From the IMG/VR virus record IMGVR_UViG_2563366978_000001: 47,048 nt of DNA. The stretch is one strand, 5' to 3'. Below are positions 149-47,048 of the stretch, one piece after another. The position numbers and the translations under genes were made by a program. How positions within the stretch are numbered: position 1 is the first letter of the stretch; every line of letters starts with the position of its first letter. This DNA comes from a virus. Lineage: Duplodnaviria; Heunggongvirae; Uroviricota; Caudoviricetes. The notes under the pieces are model-generated. The model did not search any database. It was not told where the DNA came from and saw only the letters and a program-made list of their open reading frames with translations.

Positions 149-2050
149 ATGAGCAAAGTAAAAATCGGTGAATTAATAAACTCACTTGTTAGCGATGTTG
201 AGTCAATAGATAACTCTGACCGTCCTCAAGGGGAGAAAACAAAAAAAATAAAGGCTGTTGCATTAAAATTTAAAAATGCATTATTTAATGACAAGCGAAA
301 GTTTAGGGGGAAAGGATTAGAAAAAAGAATTACAGCCAACACATTCAATGCCTATATGAGCAGGGCCAGAAAACGGTTTGATGATAAACTTCATCATAGC
401 TTTGAAAAAAATATACATCGCCTATCTGAAAAGTATCCTTTATATAATGAGGAGCTATTGTCATGGCTTTCTCTACCTGCTGCCGATATTCGCCAGAGAA
501 TGTCAGCTTTACAGGCAAAATTAAAATTAATTCTCCCTCTATCAGAAGATTTATCTAATATCAGAATTGGCGATAACAAAAGTCATAATAAGTTATTGAA
601 ATTATCAAATAAATATAAAGAGTGGCAATTCGCCATTTCTGATTTAACTAGCGATAACTGGAAAGATAAGCGCGATTATTTATATAAATTACTACAGCAA
701 GGATCTGCCTTACTTGAGGAGTTGAATCAGCTAAAAGTTAACCATGAGATTCTCTATCATCTTCAACTAAGCCCTGCCGAACGTGCATCTATCCAGCAAC
801 GATGGGCGGACGTTCTGCACAATAAGAAACGTAACGTGGTGGTCATTGATTACCCTAAATATATGCAAGCTATTTACGATATTATAAATAGCCCTGCTAC
901 ATTAAATAATCTAAACACTCGTTCAGGTATGGCTCCTTTGGCATTTGCACTTGCTGCATTGTCAGGAAGACGAATGATTGAGATTATGTATCAAGGTACA
1001 TTTACTGTTTCTGGTAAGTATACCGTTGATTTTTTAGGCCAAGCTAAAAAAAGAACTTCTGATAATATAACCAGAAAAATATATACATTATGCGAAGCAA
1101 AAACATTTGTTTATTTAATAAATGTACTTCGCTCATGCCCAGCAGCATCTGATTTTGATGATGTCGTTAAAGGTTATGGAGATAACGACACACGCTCTGA
1201 AAACGGACGTATTAATGCCATATTAGCAAAGGCTTTTAACCCGTGGGTTAAATCATTTTTCAAAGATGACCGCCGTGTTTATAAAGATAGTCGTGCTATT
1301 TATGCCCGTATTGCGTATGAAATGTTTTTCCGCGTAGATCCTCGTTGGAAAAACGTAGATGAAGATGTTTTCTTTATGGAAATTTTAGGCCATGACGATG
1401 AAAACACTCAATTACACTATAAGCAATTCAAGCTGGCCAACTTCTCAAAGACATGGAGGCCAAATACTGGAAACGAAAATACCAGGCTGGAAGCATTGCA
1501 GCAGCTTGATGACGAAATGCCTGGATTCGCCAGAGGAGATGCCGGGGTTCGTCTGCATAACACAGTTAAGCAGCTGGTAGAGCAGGACCCCTCTATAAAA
1601 ATCACGAACAGCACTCTAAGAGCGTTCAAATTTAGCCCAACAATGATTAGTCGATACCTGGAATTTGCTGCTGATGCTCTGGGGCAATTTGTTGGCGAAA
1701 ACGGACAATGGCAACTGAAAATAGATACTCCAGAAATCGTTATGCCTGACGAAGAAGAACTGGAAGCAATACCTGAACTGGCGGATGAATTATCAGAGGA
1801 TGACGATCTGGATGACGACGAAATTGAGATAGAGGAAGAGGAAGAGGAAGAGGAAGATAGCGTAGAAGAACAGCAACCGCCTGCACCTTCTTCGCCTGTA
1901 TCTAAGCCGGTATTTAAGCCGGTGAGAAATATTGGTGATGGCTCATACGTTGTTGAGTTTCATTATAATGGCCAGAATTATGCGTGGTCCGGCAGTGCAA
2001 ACAGCCCCATGTCAGCAATGCAGTTAGCATGGCTGACATATTTCGGTTAA
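149..2050 (+). CDS. telN: Protelomerase (telomere resolvase), N15 TelN-like, 633 aa
   Basis: 633-aa ORF with RBS AGGAGAGG upstream; length, N-terminus and acidic C-terminal tract match my memory of N15 TelN; sits next to the telomere end as in N15. Confidence 0.9.
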   Translation: MSKVKIGELINSLVSDVESIDNSDRPQGEKTKKIKAVALKFKNALFNDKRKFRGKGLEKRITANTFNAYMSRARKRFDDKLHHSFEKNIHRLSEKYPLYNEELLSWLSLPAADIRQRMSALQAKLKLILPLSEDLSNIRIGDNKSHNKLLKLSNKYKEWQFAISDLTSDNWKDKRDYLYKLLQQGSALLEELNQLKVNHEILYHLQLSPAERASIQQRWADVLHNKKRNVVVIDYPKYMQAIYDIINSPATLNNLNTRSGMAPLAFALAALSGRRMIEIMYQGTFTVSGKYTVDFLGQAKKRTSDNITRKIYTLCEAKTFVYLINVLRSCPAASDFDDVVKGYGDNDTRSENGRINAILAKAFNPWVKSFFKDDRRVYKDSRAIYARIAYEMFFRVDPRWKNVDEDVFFMEILGHDDENTQLHYKQFKLANFSKTWRPNTGNENTRLEALQQLDDEMPGFARGDAGVRLHNTVKQLVEQDPSIKITNSTLRAFKFSPTMISRYLEFAADALGQFVGENGQWQLKIDTPEIVMPDEEELEAIPELADELSEDDDLDDDEIEIEEEEEEEEDSVEEQQPPAPSSPVSKPVFKPVRNIGDGSYVVEFHYNGQNYAWSGSANSPMSAMQLAWLTYFG

Positions 2051-5598: not shown

Positions 5599-8500
5599 AG
5601 AAAGCGCCCTGCTCTTCGTAGCTGCATGAGCTATTCCCCGTAATGTATTCACGTAACCGCCGCAGCTCATTGCTGGAAAGGTGATCCATGAACTCTGTGA
5701 GGTACAGGGATGCAAACGTCATAGCTATGCTGGCTGATGACCATGATGACATAGTGGCCAACTCCTCACTGGAAAGCGCACTCATCGCCCAGGACTCAGG
5801 TACAGCCACTGGCAACACGGCCAAAGCCTCAGAAATTACTGAATGAGGGGCGTTTTGAACCTGCTCGTTTGTGGATCGCGTTTTATCATCCATATATATA
5901 TTGAGATCCAAATCGCGATCCATTTCGATGGCTGTCTTCTCGGCTTTACGCGTTTTTAGGGTTAGGCCATCTTTCTGACGCTGAACAAGAATATCCAGCA
6001 TAAATGCCGCTGATTCAGGCTCAACAAAACGCAAGGTTGGACGCTTATCGCCGTCTCTGCCGCGACGTTTACCTGTTTTAAGGCCAAGAGAGTCGCAAAT
6101 GTTTTTAAACAACGCTTCCGGCACTTTAGGCTTCCCTTTTGGCGTCATAAAACCACCAATGTGCAGAACGTTATTCAACAGGTCACGGCGTTCGGCTGTC
6201 ATGAGGTTATCTCGAGCGAATTTGAGACGCTCCTGAGTCGCCTCGCCGGTCATAGTCTCAGGGTTGATACCGCAGTCGATAAAGTACTGCCGGAGAGTTG
6301 CTGATTTAAGCGCATAGAAACCGCGCGCCCCGACTTCAACAGTAGGAGTAGCTTTTACCTTGTGATCGATTATTCCAGGGAATTTAGTTTTAAAGACATC
6401 ATCAGCCTGCTCGCGAGTCATCGCGGTCACTACAAAATATTGCCACTGTCCCGCCTGACGGTATGTGTAGGTAAAATTGATGGCTGCTTCTTCCCGGTCG
6501 TAACGACGAGCTGTTACCTCATCTAAAAGCATTGTTTCATAGCGGCGAACTTTGTCTCGAGCACCATCGAAATAGAATTTCAGCGTGCCTTCTTCAACCG
6601 GTAGTTTCAGTTCGTTTTCAATATCCCAGCGGACAAGTTTTGCCTGTTCTTCAAGCGTCAGCGCGCGTTTTTTTAGCAGTTCTTCACGCTCTGATTCTTG
6701 TGGTGTTTCTGTATTGAGGTGCAGATCCAGTGTCTGTTCCCACACAATATCCCGCGCTTCTTTACGCAGATCTTTACCGATATCATTCGCAGCATAATCG
6801 GTGGCCAGCGGTGATACCTTATAACCGTCGCTGTGCATGATGCAGATCATGTTGCTGGCGTAGTCGTTACGCGCAGTCGCTTCAATTGCGGCTGCTTTAA
6901 TTTTCATCCTGGTAAAGTCGGTATTGGCCACCCCCATTGATATACGGTCGCCATCGAAAACGACATCCGTAAGTTCACCGTTCATACCTGCGGTAGCAAG
7001 CAATGCCTGGGCGAATGCTCGTTCTATTTTTTGCGGGTCAGTTTCACGTTTTGCACGAGCTTTATCAAAGCCGATAATAAATTCTTTTGCTGTACGGTCG
7101 CGGCGTAGCATTTGCACTGCATCACTGGGTACAACTTCACCACAGAACATGCCGAAATGACGGTCAAAATGTTTTTGCTCAATCGACACGCCGGATGAAA
7201 TAGACGGGCTATAAATCAGGCCGTCGTATTTTTTGACCATCTTTTTCGGTTGATTGGTAAATGCTTCAACTTCTGGCTCTGGTTTGTTTTTCTGGTTTAC
7301 ACACAGAAATTTCTTACCAGGAAAATGCATTCTCAGGGTGGCTGTCACATCTTCTGCAAAGGTGGAGCTGTCGGTGGCCAACATGATTTTTTCGCCATCC
7401 GATACAGCTTTCACCACCTCGGTCATGATGCGATCTTTTTCTGTATAAAAAACCCGGATTGGCTCACCTGTTTCGCGGTTGCGAACATCAACAGGTAATT
7501 CAATTACGTGGATCTGCAGCCATGCCGGTAAACCTAGTTCTTCACGGCGTTTCATAGCCAGTTCAGCCAGGTCAACCAGCAGATCGTTCGCATCAGCATC
7601 CACCATGATTGGGTGTTGTTCCGTTCTGGCCAGCGCGTCAATTAGCGTATTGAATACAGCCACCGGGTTTTCCATAGCCCGACCGGAAAGAACGGCACGT
7701 AGCCCTTGTGTGGCCTCGTCAAAGCCAAAATAGTCGTGCTGGCGCATCAACGGTTGCCAGCAGTTTTTAACAATCGAGTTTATGCAGATGGTCAGTTTAC
7801 TGGCGTATGGAGCCATTTCCTGATAGCCAGGGTCCTGATAGTGCAGGATATCGGTTTTTACACCTTTTCCTTCTGTCATCATTTCCCACAGGCCACCAAT
7901 AAGGGAAACACGGTGAGCAACAGAGATACCACGTTCTGAGCTATGCATTAAAGGTCGTAACAATCCAGTAGATTTGCCGGAACCCATACCAGCACGAACG
8001 ATGACTATCCCCTGTAGTGATTGCACATACTTCAGGACGTCATCGGTCATTACCGAAGTTTCAAGACGCTTATAGGTGATATGTTGAGGACGTTTATTGG
8101 GATCAGTTATGCGTTCGCTGAATGAGCGCGGAGCCTGGGCAATACGGCACTTTTTATTCAGGCGACGGGCAATGTGGTCTTTTACCGTAGCGCGATAGAT
8201 ATTTTCCAGCCCCATTTCACGCAGAACGATGCAGAACATGTTAAATAAGTCTGACGGACTGTTAGGAACCGGACAGGTTAGCATGCCAATATCCACCGCT
8301 CTCAGCAGCTCTTTGGCAAAAGTACGACGGTTATCCCGCTTAATTGTCTTCAGGCGGTTGAGCGTCAGAGATAGCAAATCAGTGCCGGTTTTCAGGCGGT
8401 TTGCAGTTGCAAACAGTTGACGTGCTGTTTCACGAAGTCCACGCAGTTTGTGCAGGTCGTTGAAGTCACTGCACTCCATTTGCGGATCGTCTTCAAAAGT

Positions 8501-17131: not shown

Positions 17132-17265
17132 TGCCTGAAAAGTGGGCGCAGGACAAGTTGCAGCTTGTCCTGCGGTCAACCCATGCCAGAGCTATAGGCT
17201 GAACCTAAAGCCCACCCGCGATGCGCATCGCCGGGTTAGCTTACCCAGGCAAAAAAATAATAGCT

Positions 17266-18342
17266 ATGTTCAAAACCACTAATATTCATGGCGCGCAACT
17301 CGTTTGCGCAGATTCTCTGCAATTTATCAAAACCATCCCTGATAACTCGGTCAATTTGATTGCAACAGACCCACCATACTTCGGCGTAAAGGCTAACGCA
17401 TGGGATAACCAGTGGGATAGCGATGCTGACTTTTTGGGGTGGATTGATGAATTTTTGGCAGAATTTTGGCGGATATTGGCCCCTAATGGCAGCCTGTATA
17501 TGTTTACCGGCTCTCGCCTTGCGTCAAAAATTGAATTATTAACTCGCGACCGTTTCAATGTTCTGAACCATATCATTTGGGCTAAACCCAGTGGTATGTG
17601 GCGCGGTTGTCATAAAGAAAGTTTAAGGGCTTATTTTCCTGCCACTGAAAGAATATTATTTGCAGAGCATTACGGCGCGTCAGGTTATGCTAAAGGTCAG
17701 TCAGGTTATGCTTCAAAATGTGCAGATTTAAGAAAAAATATTTTTTCTCCACTAATTGATGCTTTTTCGCTGGCTCGCCGTCAGTTAGATATATCAGCCG
17801 CAGACATTAATTCAGCAACAGGAAAGCAGATGTGTTCGCACTGGTTTTCTTATTCGCAGTGGCGGCTTCCATCATTAAGTGATTTTAATAAACTATGCGA
17901 ATTATTTCGCAGGAAGGCAGATTCACTCGGTGTCCCGTGTCCATATCCTTTTAATGTTGATTATTCAGAACATGAAAAGCGTTATAGCGATCTGAAATTG
18001 CGTTATGAGGAAGTAAAGAAGCAGTATGATGATTTGAAGGCTCAGTATGAAAATTTGCGCCGCCCATTTCATGTTACTGCTGATGTACCTTATACCGATG
18101 TATGGGAGTTTCCTCCTGTGCAATATTATCCTGGCAAGCACCCATGTGAAAAACCTGCAGCGATGATGGAACATATTATAAAAAGTAGTTCCCGCCCCGG
18201 AGATATCGTTGCCGATTTCTTTATGGGATCAGGCTCTACTATTAAAGCCGCGCTGAAGTTAGGTCGTCAGGCAATCGGTATTGAGATTGAGGGTGAACGT
18301 TATCTTCAGACAGTTGATGAAGTGAAAAAGTTATTTGAGTAA
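17266..18342 (+). CDS. DNA methyltransferase (DPPY motif; N6-adenine or N4-cytosine class), about 358 aa, no adjacent restriction enzyme
   Basis: Motif IV ATDPPYFG before motif I FFMGSGST; start taken at the internal ATG 17266, the track ORF starts at 17221. Confidence 0.75.
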   Translation: MFKTTNIHGAQLVCADSLQFIKTIPDNSVNLIATDPPYFGVKANAWDNQWDSDADFLGWIDEFLAEFWRILAPNGSLYMFTGSRLASKIELLTRDRFNVLNHIIWAKPSGMWRGCHKESLRAYFPATERILFAEHYGASGYAKGQSGYASKCADLRKNIFSPLIDAFSLARRQLDISAADINSATGKQMCSHWFSYSQWRLPSLSDFNKLCELFRRKADSLGVPCPYPFNVDYSEHEKRYSDLKLRYEEVKKQYDDLKAQYENLRRPFHVTADVPYTDVWEFPPVQYYPGKHPCEKPAAMMEHIIKSSSRPGDIVADFFMGSGSTIKAALKLGRQAIGIEIEGERYLQTVDEVKKLFE

Positions 18343-19712: not shown

Positions 19713-20024
19713 ATGAAAATTTATATTGCCGGGCCAATGACTGGATATGAGAACTTTAATCGTGACGCCTTTAATAAAGAGGCAGATCGTTTGTCACGAC
19801 ATGGTCACTCTGTCTTGAATCCAGCCACTTTGCCTAATGGTCTGACACAACGTGAATACATGGATATTTGCTTTGCAATGCTTCGTTGTGCTGATGCTAT
19901 TTTGATGCTTCCTGGCTGGAAAGCGTCTGCTGGAGCAACTGCTGAGTATCATTACGCATACAAGATGGAGATGCCGGTATTCACTACGCTGAATTACCCG
20001 CCAGCTTGTTCCTCTGTAGCATAA
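19713..20024 (+). CDS. Nucleoside 2-deoxyribosyltransferase-like (DUF4406-type) protein, 103 aa
   Basis: MKIYIAGPMTG N-terminus typical of this fold. Confidence 0.55.
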   Translation: MKIYIAGPMTGYENFNRDAFNKEADRLSRHGHSVLNPATLPNGLTQREYMDICFAMLRCADAILMLPGWKASAGATAEYHYAYKMEMPVFTTLNYPPACSSVA

Positions 20025-20042: not shown

Positions 20043-20062
20043 TGTGCGACCGTGGTCGCACA
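20043..20062. repeat. sopC-like palindrome TGTGCGACCGTGGTCGCACA; putative centromere site
   Basis: 20-bp palindrome. Confidence 0.65.
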
Positions 20063-20262
20063 TTAAATACCGCGCTGCATCGTCGCCGTATTTCCGCATT
20101 AACCATGACCGTAGCCCGACGGGGAACTCCTCTGCGCGAGTGTGCGGAAATAATCAAAAACGATGCACACCGGGTTTTTACCGCGCTAATGATTCGCGGG
20201 TTTGTCCCTCATGCTCGCCAGTCCTGTGCGAGGGTGGAAGAAACAGGGCATGTATTCAGGAG

Positions 20263-20282
20263 CGTGCGACCGTGGTCGCACG
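20263..20282. repeat. sopC-like palindrome CGTGCGACCGTGGTCGCACG; putative centromere site
   Basis: 20-bp palindrome. Confidence 0.65.
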
Positions 20283-20304
20283 GTATCTTTGTCAGGAGGT
20301 TTTG

Positions 20305-20619
20305 ATGAAAGAGTTGCAAAAAATTAATTCAATAATGGAAAGGTTAAGTGCTCTTGAGCGTAAGCTGGACGATTGTGGAAAGCTGTGTGTTGAAAAGCAA
20401 AATGAGCTTTACCGGGAATTTTTTACAATCGTAAGTGAGCTGATGCCAATTGTTAATAACTGCCTGATGACATCCAGATTTTTTAATGTCGATGCTACTA
20501 CATCCAGAAAATTTTCTGTGAAAATTCAAGAAAGGGTTTCTGGTAGTGTGACAAGAGAGATGGCTGAACAGTTGGTGGCAATGAGCAATAAAACAAAAAG
20601 AAAAAAGCATTGCTTGTAA
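20305..20619 (+). CDS. Hypothetical protein, about 104 aa, AT-rich moron just upstream of cos
   Basis: RBS AGGAGG then ATG at 20305; the upstream part of the track ORF covers the centromere palindromes. Confidence 0.45.
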   Translation: MKELQKINSIMERLSALERKLDDCGKLCVEKQNELYREFFTIVSELMPIVNNCLMTSRFFNVDATTSRKFSVKIQERVSGSVTREMAEQLVAMSNKTKRKKHCL

Positions 20620-20720
20620 CAGCAAATCAGCTTTCAGGGCGCGTTGACTTTCAGGTGTTGCGGCATGCAGATGATAATTATTATCATTGCGGGTCCTTTC
20701 CAGTGATCCGACAGGTTACG

Positions 20721-20732
20721 GGGCGGAAGGCG
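20721..20732. other. cos: cosN cohesive-end site, predicted 12-nt overhang GGGCGGAAGGCG, flanked by lambda-like cosQ/cosB
   Basis: Flanking sequence matches my memory of lambda cos; the 12-mer differs from lambda GGGCGGCGACCT at 5 positions. Confidence 0.7.
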
Positions 20733-20909
20733 CGCGGGTTTTCGCTATTTATGAAAATTTTCCGGTTTAAGGCGTTTCCGTTCTTCTTCTCCGTAACTTA
20801 ATGTTTTTATTTAAAACACCCCCTGAAAAGAAAGGAAACGACAGGTGCTGAAAACAGGCCTTTTGGCCTCTGTCGTTTCCTTTCTCTGTTTTTATCCGTG
20901 GAATGAACA

Positions 20910-21455: not shown

Positions 21456-25136
<3,681 letters not shown>

Positions 25137-44436: not shown

Positions 44437-45426
44437 TTAGTTATTTTTTACATCGGAAGAATTTCCAAACGCCTCCTCAAGAATAGATTCAATTTTACTC
44501 ATTAGGTGCGATGGTATTTTTCTGTTATCTAATTTTAATGTTGTGAAATTTTTCCCATATTTCGCCACAACACCGTCTCCATATTTCTTTTCCCTTTTCT
44601 CTCCATGTGAATTGTTTTTCTCAACAATAATGAAATCATGAAGAGCCTGTATTATTCTTTGCGCATCTAAACTTTCACCTGATTTTTTCATCCTCAGCAA
44701 CTGAGATGCAGCATTTTTCATGGCTGCTTCCTGTCCCTGATATGCTTTAAAAAGAGCGTCTCCTGCTCTGGCTGATAACTCACCAGGATGGTTAAATATT
44801 GCCAATATATCTTTAGGTAAACCGGCTGTATTAATACATCGGCTGATAATATTTCTATCCACGCCTTCGGCTTCAGCTAAAGATTTTACGTTACCGTCAA
44901 ATTCATGGAGCCTTCGCAGGTATCTTTTCCCCCTTTCATAGGCGCTGATAGGTCTATAGTCGTTGCCTATCTGCGATAACCATTGCATTTGTTCATCATC
45001 TAAATCGCCAATAAGAACACGATAATCGCATCCAGTTATAATGGCTGCTTTACGTCTTCGAGAACCATCAGCTACTTCAACAATACCTGACACTTTTCTT
45101 GCGAAAGCCGGATTTTGTTGCCCAGAAGTTAGAAAAGATGGAATTAAATCAGCTAGAGAAGATTCATTTAATAAATCTTGATCACGCTCATTACCTAGCC
45201 ATACCATTGTTGCCATTTCTACTTTATCTGCGGGGATCGTTTCTAACTTAAAGTTAACATTACGTCCGCATACTGGCAAAGTTATGCTATTACCGGTTAA
45301 TGAACTCAGTTGACGTTTTAAATCACCAACCATAGGTGATACCGGCTGATGTTCAGGTGCATGATGATTATTACTCATAATGCGATTAATATCCGGAGCA
45401 TTTTTTAGAAGAGAGCGTTGTTTCAT
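44437..45426 (-). CDS. sopB: Partition protein SopB (ParB family)
   Basis: 329 aa; conserved block ITLPVCGR...SGNERDQ...DGSRRRKAA...GNDYRP as in F SopB. Confidence 0.95.
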   Translation of the reverse strand: MKQRSLLKNAPDINRIMSNNHHAPEHQPVSPMVGDLKRQLSSLTGNSITLPVCGRNVNFKLETIPADKVEMATMVWLGNERDQDLLNESSLADLIPSFLTSGQQNPAFARKVSGIVEVADGSRRRKAAIITGCDYRVLIGDLDDEQMQWLSQIGNDYRPISAYERGKRYLRRLHEFDGNVKSLAEAEGVDRNIISRCINTAGLPKDILAIFNHPGELSARAGDALFKAYQGQEAAMKNAASQLLRMKKSGESLDAQRIIQALHDFIIVEKNNSHGEKREKKYGDGVVAKYGKNFTTLKLDNRKIPSHLMSKIESILEEAFGNSSDVKNN

Positions 45427-46592
45427 TCTTCGTTCTCCCAGCGAGGTTTTATTAGATCATCAAAAATTTCTCGACAAACAGGGTCCCATATAGAGACGGC
45501 ATTTCTCCATGCATTAAGTGTTGAACGCTGGTTTGCCGCTTGTTCAAATACTGTTCGCATTTTTATCTGACCTTTACCTACTTCATCGGTAACGCGTACA
45601 ACCTGACGTAATACCATTGATCCCCATGTATTTCTTATTTGCTCTTCCATCCATCGTGATTGATTTCCTGTAGTGAGACTATATTTAGTCAGAAGCAAGC
45701 GAACGGTCGGCTCAAATCCGCCTAGGTCAACGCTTTCTAGGAGATCGAGAAGCATTGTGAAAAACTGTAGAACAGAGGCGTAATCAAATAATTCTGCAGG
45801 GGTAGCAACAACGATAACGTCAGCTGCGCAAACAACGTTAATGGTTCCTGTACCGAGGTTTGGAGCACTATCTATAACGATAACATCGTAGTTATCCCAA
45901 ACTGATTCTATAGCTGCGCGTAGCATCAGGTGAGGAGGGTGAGGCAATTTACCCTGAGCATGATATTGCATGAGATCTGTTTCTATACGGTGTAAAGCTA
46001 GGCAGCTAGGAATAATGTCCAGTCCAGGCCAGCATGTTGGTTTTATAGCATATTCAGCGTTATCGCGTTCGCCCAAGTAAAATGGCAGTAAAGTATCCTC
46101 GGCATGTATATGTAAATCAGGTACATAACCGTGATACATGGAGGCTGTTCCCTGAGGATCGTTACCTTCAACTAAAAGAACACGATGACCTTGTAATGCT
46201 AGCCATTGTGCCTGATGTACTGCAGACGATGTTTTATAAACGCCGCCTTTGTGTGACATAACAGCAAGCACAACTGGGTTTTTATCTTGTGGCCGTTGGT
46301 TTGGGTTGCCAAAAACAGCTCGCATACTATTGATTTGATCTATGGTATAACCGGCACGACGTTCAACTCTTCCTCTCATTTCAAAGTCAGGTGCAGGTAA
46401 ACGCCCGTTCTTCTCAGCATCTCTTATTGCTTGAGGAGTTACACCAATTAAATCTGCTACTTCAGTTATCCCCCATCTACGCGTGATACGCCGAGCTTCA
46501 GGACTATCATCACCGAATTGAGCTATAGCAATTGCTTGGGTCATTTCTTGACCGCGCGTAACACAATCTTGTAATAACTTTTTCAAAGACAT
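45423..46592 (-). CDS. sopA: Partition ATPase SopA (ParA family)
   Basis: 389 aa; Walker A KGGVYKTS and long blocks identical to F SopA. Confidence 0.95.
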   Translation of the reverse strand: MSLKKLLQDCVTRGQEMTQAIAIAQFGDDSPEARRITRRWGITEVADLIGVTPQAIRDAEKNGRLPAPDFEMRGRVERRAGYTIDQINSMRAVFGNPNQRPQDKNPVVLAVMSHKGGVYKTSSAVHQAQWLALQGHRVLLVEGNDPQGTASMYHGYVPDLHIHAEDTLLPFYLGERDNAEYAIKPTCWPGLDIIPSCLALHRIETDLMQYHAQGKLPHPPHLMLRAAIESVWDNYDVIVIDSAPNLGTGTINVVCAADVIVVATPAELFDYASVLQFFTMLLDLLESVDLGGFEPTVRLLLTKYSLTTGNQSRWMEEQIRNTWGSMVLRQVVRVTDEVGKGQIKMRTVFEQAANQRSTLNAWRNAVSIWDPVCREIFDDLIKPRWENEE

Positions 46593-46882: not shown

Positions 46883-47022
46883 GAACACAATCAAAGATCG
46901 TAAAACAACAATAATAATTCACACAAAATAAAGAACACAAATACAGAAAACAACAACACAATAAAAACAAGAGAACACAAGCTATAAATATTACACCAAT
47001 AGAGAACACTAATCAAGAACAT
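46883..47022. repeat. Right telomere-proximal repeat array: AGAACAC at 46883, 46933, 46973, 47003, and AGAACAT at 47016
   Basis: Direct reading; spacing shortens toward the end (50, 40, 30, 13 bp). Confidence 0.65.
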
Positions 47023-47048
47023 ATCAGCACATAATTCCCCATTATACG
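47022..47048. other. Half of the telomere resolution palindrome (telO/telRL-like): TATCAGCACATAATTCCCCATTATACG
   Basis: Matches the N15 telRL half-site TATCAGCACACAATTGCCCATTATACGC as I remember it with 2 mismatches; the window ends one base short of the predicted symmetry centre. Confidence 0.8.

Follow-up and report, generated by a model that had tools for sequence, protein, structure and literature searches.

A lambda-type cos site with a recurrent AAGGCG allele in cosN's right half on an N15-like linear plasmid prophage

What does it mean when a cos site that is almost that of phage lambda carries a different cohesive end? This question is raised by a locus in a 47,048-nt stretch of viral DNA (Caudoviricetes; IMG/VR record IMGVR_UViG_2563366978_000001), which as a whole is called the window below. 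The original prediction held that the flanks of this cos are nearly those of lambda, that the 12-nt overhang is a different one and that this difference matters for compatibility with lambda terminase. We arrive at a simpler reading, to which we assign a probability of about 0.85: The locus is a working lambda-type cos belonging to a temperate phage with the lifestyle of a linear plasmid like N15, and the hexamer AAGGCG is an established natural allele of cosN's right half.

To compare the cos sites, the two ends of lambda (J02459) and the two of N15 (NC_001901) were aligned to the window. The features are compiled in Table 1. The predicted cohesive-end segment occurs only once in the whole window, and no match with two or fewer mismatches to the lambda end GGGCGGCGACCT is present anywhere near it. 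cosQ is located 23 bp from the position of the top-strand nick, which is the same distance as in lambda, and it is invariant across the lambda-R3 loci compared (pi = 0). The sole change in the spacer between cosQ and cosN is a G-to-A exchange at -19. The left half of cosN (bp 1-6, GGGCGG) agrees with lambda at 6/6 positions. By contrast, the right half (bp 7-12) reads AAGGCG, where lambda has CGACCT. Only one of these six positions is the same, the changes being at bp 7, 8, 9, 10 and 12. Over the full 12-mer, 7/12 positions are identical to lambda, so that the alignment bears out a lambda-like cos whose predicted cohesive end is unlike that of lambda. The predicted 12-nt 5' overhangs would be GGGCGGAAGGCG at the left end and CGCCTTCCGCCC at the right end. 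CG pairs are found on both sides of the predicted nicks (CG/GGGCGGAAGGCG/CG, 20719-20734).

Table 1. Coordinates of the cos subsites, the terminase genes and the plasmid functions in the window
Feature	Position	Strand	Remarks
Protelomerase (TelN)	149-2050		TelK/ResT domains
RepA-type replication protein, 1331 aa	5591-9586	-	Toprim/ori-binding
cosQ, GGGTCCT	20691..20697	+	Packaging-termination signal; 7/7 identical to lambda 48473-48479
cosQ-cosN spacer	20698..20720	+	Ends in the CG that flanks nick site N1; 22/23 identical to lambda
cosN, predicted cohesive-end segment GGGCGGAAGGCG	20721..20732	+	Nick positions by homology to lambda
bp 13-49, CG flanking nick site N2 and cosN-to-R3 spacer	20733..20769	+	37/37 identical to lambda
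cosB R3, AGGCGTTTCCGTTCTT	20770..20785	+	Critical TerS (Nu1) binding site; 16/16 identical to lambda bp 50-65
R3-R2 interval	20786..20828	+	I1, IHF-binding region in lambda; IHF site by homology alone
cosB R2, AGAAAGGAAACGACAG	20829..20844	-	Inverted TerS site; 16/16 identical to lambda bp 109-124
cosB R1, CTGTCGTTTCCTTTCT	20870..20885	+	TerS site; 16/16 identical to lambda R1
Nu1, terminase small subunit, 181 aa	20910..21455	+	Pfam Phage_Nu1, E = 1e-95
A (gpA), terminase large subunit, 641 aa	21430..23355	+	Pfam GpA_ATPase, GpA_nuclease
SopA/SopB partition proteins	44437-46592	-	ParA/SopB_HTH domains
Telomere half-site, right end	47020-47048		…CCCCATTATACG; matches the tel half annotated in PhiR46_1

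Downstream of cosN the site returns to lambda. Because bp 13-49 are identical to lambda, the spacing between cosN and R3 is preserved, and the identity extends over bp 13-69 (57/57). The interval between R3 and R2 (bp 66-108) contains five mismatches at bp 70, 71, 73, 97 and 102; its core TAACTTAATGTTTTTATTTAAAA is the same as in lambda. Between R2 and R1, a 1-bp deletion displaces R1 by one base compared to lambda; the start of Nu1 lies at bp 190 (lambda: 191). With cosQ, bp 13-69 and all three R sites identical to lambda, the term "nearly lambda" for the flanks is, if anything, an understatement. Between -30 and +135, 12 mismatches to lambda were counted, and five of them fall within the 6-bp hexamer (hypergeometric P = 4.8e-6). 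Therefore, bp 7-12 represent a sharply localised replacement and not a part of general divergence. In a small and related sample of lambda-R3 loci, nucleotide diversity is 0.076 for bp 7-12 and 0.075 for the spacer between cosQ and cosN, and this comparison gave no sign of a special constraint on, or acceleration of, bp 7-12.

The window is a near-complete N15-like linear plasmid prophage in plasmid orientation with cos in its middle, and not an integrating prophage of the lambda type. It encodes a protelomerase, a RepA-type replication protein and the partition proteins SopA and SopB, and its right end is a telomere half-site (Table 1). The left end is about 54 nt shorter, including the tel half, than that in the record of Escherichia phage PhiR46_1 (PV340565), with which the window shares 97-99% identity along most of its length. 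The late region is of the lambda type and not of the N15 type: Compared to lambda, W shows 0/68 differences and B 3/533. The terminase genes are followed by a complete series of head and tail ORFs with the sizes known from lambda, and every ORF for packaging, head and tail has its full length. PhiR46_1 was deposited as a phage from host ECOR13 with telL and telR annotated; we found no paper describing PhiR phages, and its status as a virion-forming, plaque-forming phage is taken from the wording of the GenBank record. Further relatives of the window are YDC107_1 (CP025712, classified there as Ravinvirus) and several Escherichia plasmids of ~46 kb, which it resembles. Both phage records, YDC107_1 and PhiR46_1, have the phage-plasmid architecture and the AAGGCG cosN in common with the window. 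They differ from it at two positions of the spacer (…CCGGCAGGCTACG); moreover, sequence is inserted or replaced upstream of cos as well as in the early region.

Just upstream of cos, a replacement hot-spot was observed when window positions 20044-20619 were compared with locus L001 (2746-3900) and locus L002 (1268-2960). Here, YDC107_1 and PhiR46_1 contain ~0.5-1 kb of different or extra ORFs. From ~55 bp upstream of cosN (window 20665) onward, the window is collinear with both. Two further genes are common to the three elements: one of the DUF4406 / nucleoside 2-deoxyribosyltransferase-like type (19713-20024), which separates the lysis cassette from cos, and a gene upstream of the holin gene (17221-18342) for a 373-aa N6/N4 DNA methylase.

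To see how often AAGGCG recurs, a 48-mer centred on cosN was used as query against 5426 complete E. coli genomes and against PLSDB. Since this 48-mer cannot seed on the lambda allele, its matches are allele-specific. It was found at 169 places (153 chromosomal, 16 on plasmids) in 158 of the 5426 genomes. The 48-mer with the lambda allele was found in the same set at 8404 places in 4482 genomes. This means, AAGGCG accounts for about 2% of the lambda-type cos sites in complete E. coli genomes. In PLSDB, the AAGGCG 48-mer is present in 23 plasmids, all of them non-mobilizable and most of them 42-47 kb in size, whose hosts are E. coli, E. fergusonii, E. albertii and Shigella sonnei. These 23 plasmids are a phage-plasmid family, and the allele is typical of it. 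The species spread was taken from the organism counts of PLSDB in place of a scan with a 17-base pattern, which was discarded as too short and too G+C-rich (120 chance matches in high-GC genomes). In IMG/VR, 57 loci combine AAGGCG with a cosQ at the correct distance. The spacer between cosQ and cosN varies among loci, and the allele is linked to 19 spacer haplotypes and 5 right flanks. Furthermore, the identical 48-mer resides in an integrated lambdoid prophage of the APEC strain E14033, which carries cII, O/P-type replication genes, Q and iss. Many of the carriers are prophages that may or may not be viable. Phage records and contigs were also searched for a start or an end at the variant cosN, and none was found.

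This recurrence bears on the most trivial explanation, a decayed, non-functional cos of a defective element or an error of sequencing or assembly in a G+C-rich stretch. Many E. coli lambdoid prophages are indeed defective, and the incomplete left telomere indicates that the assembly is imperfect. However, hundreds of assemblies that are independent of each other contain the identical hexamer, and the haplotypes that flank it differ. Decay would not be confined precisely to bp 7-12, with 57 bp to one side and 28 of 29 to the other left untouched. In addition, the essential subsites – cosQ, bp 1-6, the CG flanks, the spacing and R3 – are all intact, the ORFs for packaging, head and tail are complete and the close relative PhiR46_1 was deposited as a phage. 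Based on the recurrence of the allele and the intact essential subsites, sequencing error and local decay were rejected; we consider this explanation extremely improbable.

If AAGGCG is a genuine allele, does it require a terminase of its own? The original prediction pointed in this direction, and a stronger version can be formulated: The hexamer defines a distinct cutting specificity, lambda terminase cuts it poorly and its carriers have a co-adapted large terminase subunit. Five of six right-half positions differ from lambda, and two of the symmetric base pairs of lambda are lost. However, gpA of the window is identical to lambda gpA at 638/641 residues (N9D, S21A, T466I). Nu1 differs from its lambda counterpart by 12 aa (169/181 identical); D10E is the only exchange before residue 71, and the other 11 are located at or beyond residue 71. 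For a broader view, homologues of gpA and Nu1 were extracted downstream of every lambda-flanked cos locus in IMG/VR, which yielded a co-variation set of 64 full-length lambda-type gpA and 93 Nu1 sequences. Among these 64 gpA and 93 Nu1, no residue is fixed between AAGGCG and CGACCT. Moreover, one gpA and four Nu1 proteins were found in identical form next to both alleles, so in nature the same enzyme is paired with either hexamer.

A single position gave a hint of co-variation. At gpA residue 466, 16 I and 18 T were counted with AAGGCG versus 9 I and 50 T with CGACCT, which makes T466I commoner with the variant (16/34 vs 9/59). After removal of duplicates, this association has a Fisher P of 0.04. 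Against a causal role, both T466 and I466 are found with each allele, and a weak association of this kind is what linkage within lineages would give. Co-variation of the terminase with the allele was rejected on these grounds. Published data point the same way, as cleavage by lambda TerL is unaffected by right-half changes (PMC4669245). A distinct cutting specificity is thus very unlikely, and it is probably wrong to claim that the change bears on compatibility with lambda terminase: The proteins are nearly or fully shared between the alleles, and changes in cosN's right half have been reported to have little effect (PMC4669245). Codon 466 corresponds to window positions 22825-22827 and belongs to the motif CWD(T/I)GGID in the nuclease domain; the T/I polymorphism is common in nature.

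The reading of AAGGCG as a natural allele agrees well with what has been published on cosN. Lambda-like phages commonly differ from each other at bp 7-12 (Feiss et al. 2015, PMC4669245): N15 and phiD326 deviate from lambda at bp 9 and 12 and Gifsy-1 at bp 8, 9 and 11. Mutations in cosN's right half have a minimal phenotype, whereas the symmetric changes in the left half are severe. For instance, G2C causes a tenfold cost and C11G none (PMC4669245). This asymmetry between left and right is due to TerS, which, when bound at R3, anchors TerL for nicking of the bottom strand (PMC4669245). The yields obtained with lambda TerL are the same for cosN-lambda and for cosN-N15 (PMC4669245). Conservation thus concerns bp 1-6 together with the CG pairs on the flanks, and bp 7-12 can vary freely (PMC4669245, PMC12315714). 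The cohesive end of phage 21 is identical to lambda GGGCGGCGACCT (PMC4669245).

Three further scans of IMG/VR were performed with degenerate patterns, so that the allele counts are biased by the patterns used. On the scaffold cosQ-23 bp-CG-GGGCGG-N6-CG, at least 20 different hexamers were found at bp 7-12 (loci L346-L455 included). In these pattern-biased counts, CGTCCG (N15 type) is represented by 51 loci and CAGCGT (Gifsy-1 type) by 50. The hexamer of lambda was recovered as well. Further hexamers are CGTCCT, AGACCT, CAGACT, CAGACG, CAGCGG and GAGCGG, and even one-step neighbours of AAGGCG, AAGGCT and CAGGCG, are present. The phages 434 and phi80 have cohesive ends identical to lambda GGGCGGCGACCT. 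The right-half alleles of Gifsy-1, phiD326 and mEp213/LLS represent the same phenomenon as AAGGCG, which is among the alleles furthest from lambda (5/6) and yet is located on an otherwise lambda-identical cos. AAGGCG is therefore one point, albeit a distant one, in the known cloud of right-half variation. Vahanian et al. (2017, Virology 509:140-145) are said to have devoted a survey to natural cosN variation in lambda-like phages. We found the 12-mer GGGCGGAAGGCG in none of the phage papers searched, and this survey may already tabulate the allele.

Both lambda and N15 are close known counterparts of the window. With lambda it shares cosQ, the spacing, the left half of cosN, the CG pairs that flank the nicks, bp 13-69 and R3, R2 and R1. 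It differs from lambda, an integrating phage, in the hexamer, in the 1-bp deletion between R2 and R1 and in its lifestyle as a linear plasmid prophage. Of the features of a lambda-type cos, the window has cosQ, GGGCGG with its CG flanks and adjacent genes for Nu1 and gpA. From the lambda packaging-specificity group, the window has the complex cosB-lambda (R3, R2, R1 and bp 13-69) and lacks the lambda-identical cohesive end. Since packaging specificity is set by cosB and TerS, the window should, judged from its sequence, share that of lambda.

N15 (Ravinvirus N15) is, like the window, a telomere phage-plasmid with TelN, RepA and SopAB, and in the record of N15, a single-stranded 5' extension is annotated that comprises its first 12 bases. 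Its cos has the same cosQ and GGGCGG, and, again like the window, a right half unlike that of lambda with a G at bp 12. N15 is the natural case that has been published and tested. However, its right half CGTCCG differs from lambda at bp 9 and 12 only, whereas AAGGCG differs at 5/6 positions. N15 also has a simple cosB with a single R3-N15, GAGGTTGTTGTT (bp 48-59), and rR2 inside the TerS gene. Its gene 1 (TerS) starts at about bp 89, in contrast to Nu1 in the window. The window carries lambda R sites in place of an N15-type cosB, and N15 bp 50-65 are unrelated in sequence. In summary of the alignment with both phages, the cosB is of the lambda type, bp 7-12 read AAGGCG and the R3 of N15 is missing.

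How would such a site work? Nu1 would bind R3, R2 and R1 of the lambda-identical cosB, and IHF would bend the DNA at I1. gpA would thereby be positioned to nick the top strand at 20720/20721 and the bottom strand at 20732/20733, leaving the two predicted 12-nt 5' ends, and cosQ would serve for termination as in lambda. Both the nick positions and the activity of cos in this element are transferred here from lambda by homology. Anchoring of terminase at cosB would make nicking insensitive to the sequence of bp 7-12. If so, the hexamer could drift or be exchanged among lambda-like phages.

The duplex formed by the overhangs has a G+C content of 10/12 and a nearest-neighbour dG37 of -17.8 kcal/mol, compared to -18.2 kcal/mol for lambda. 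With regard to two-fold symmetry, the pairs (-2,14), (-1,13) and (2,11) are kept, (3,10) and (6,7) are lost and (4,9) is gained, i.e. two of the five symmetric pairs of lambda are missing. This loss may reduce or shift nicking of the bottom strand. As part of the explanation that we favour, AAGGCG very probably leaves both terminase recognition and duplex stability unchanged.

A different situation is expected when one lambda end meets one variant end. In a hybrid chromosome, pairing would be confined to GGGCGG with about -8 kcal/mol versus -18 kcal/mol, and mismatches would adjoin the bottom-strand nick. Both cyclisation and ligation should therefore be inefficient, and this is the only functional consequence that we expect of the allele. 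For comparison, a 2-base mismatch between the two ends already causes a yield loss of about fourfold (PMC4669245). It is hence plausible that the change affects the compatibility between the two kinds of DNA ends, as distinct from that between DNA and terminase.

One could go further and propose that AAGGCG is kept by selection as a cohesive-end compatibility group in telomere phage-plasmids of Escherichia, some prophages and satellites. According to this proposal, chromosomes with mixed ends cannot cyclise, and a partial recombination barrier arises between co-resident lambdoid elements. In addition to the weak hybrid pairing, the hexamer is nearly dimorphic on lambda flanks with few intermediates (117 loci with CGACCT, 5 with AAGGCG and 1 with CGACCG), and the allele is typical of one phage-plasmid family. 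However, AAGGCG is also found on many other flanks, in integrated prophages and in satellite-like loci. On so many backgrounds, it must move freely between them and is not the marker of an isolated lineage. Moreover, one-step intermediates do exist, and common descent with occasional introgression yields dimorphism equally well. We therefore consider maintenance as a compatibility group very improbable and give the recombination barrier only a slim chance. If this proposal were true, right-half cosN alleles would partly isolate their lineage from recombination with lambda-type prophages.

Taken as a natural right-half allele, AAGGCG is real but ordinary: Natural variation of cosN's right half was known before and now includes one more well-populated allele, which has little import for biology at large. 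The allele is also a piece of comparative evidence that five of the six right-half positions can change without any need for lambda terminase to adapt. For genome annotation it means that GGGCGGCGACCT is not to be expected at the ends of every lambda-like genome. When both types of cos are mixed in cosmid work or in vitro packaging, molecules with non-annealing ends could result. Likewise, recombinant hybrid chromosomes with the two cos types are predicted to be poorly infectious.

Two minor observations were made in the course of the searches. In IMG/VR, four loci (L065 4086-4800, L143, L197 and L210) carry the AAGGCG cosN and cosQ in front of a 175-aa Nu1 homologue (37% identity), and they are devoid of lambda R sites and of a downstream gpA. 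This layout resembles cos-rpp of the phage-inducible chromosomal islands of Gram-negatives (PMC9026076). Counterparts with the lambda allele, which also have a Nu1 homologue without gpA, are L058, L077 and L105. The second observation concerns "plasmid" matches of the lambda-allele 48-mer in PLSDB, which are mostly either lambda-sized records of unrelated genera or very large misassigned replicons. The perfect lambda 48-mer is contained in CP036489 (Rahnella), HM037272 (Bacillus thuringiensis), NZ_CP104070 (Alicyclobacillus) and NZ_CP068597 (Paenibacillus, 48499 bp). The Paenibacillus and Rahnella records (48-49 kb) have about the size of lambda. Such records from unrelated genera are probably contaminations with lambda control DNA or vector-derived sequences.
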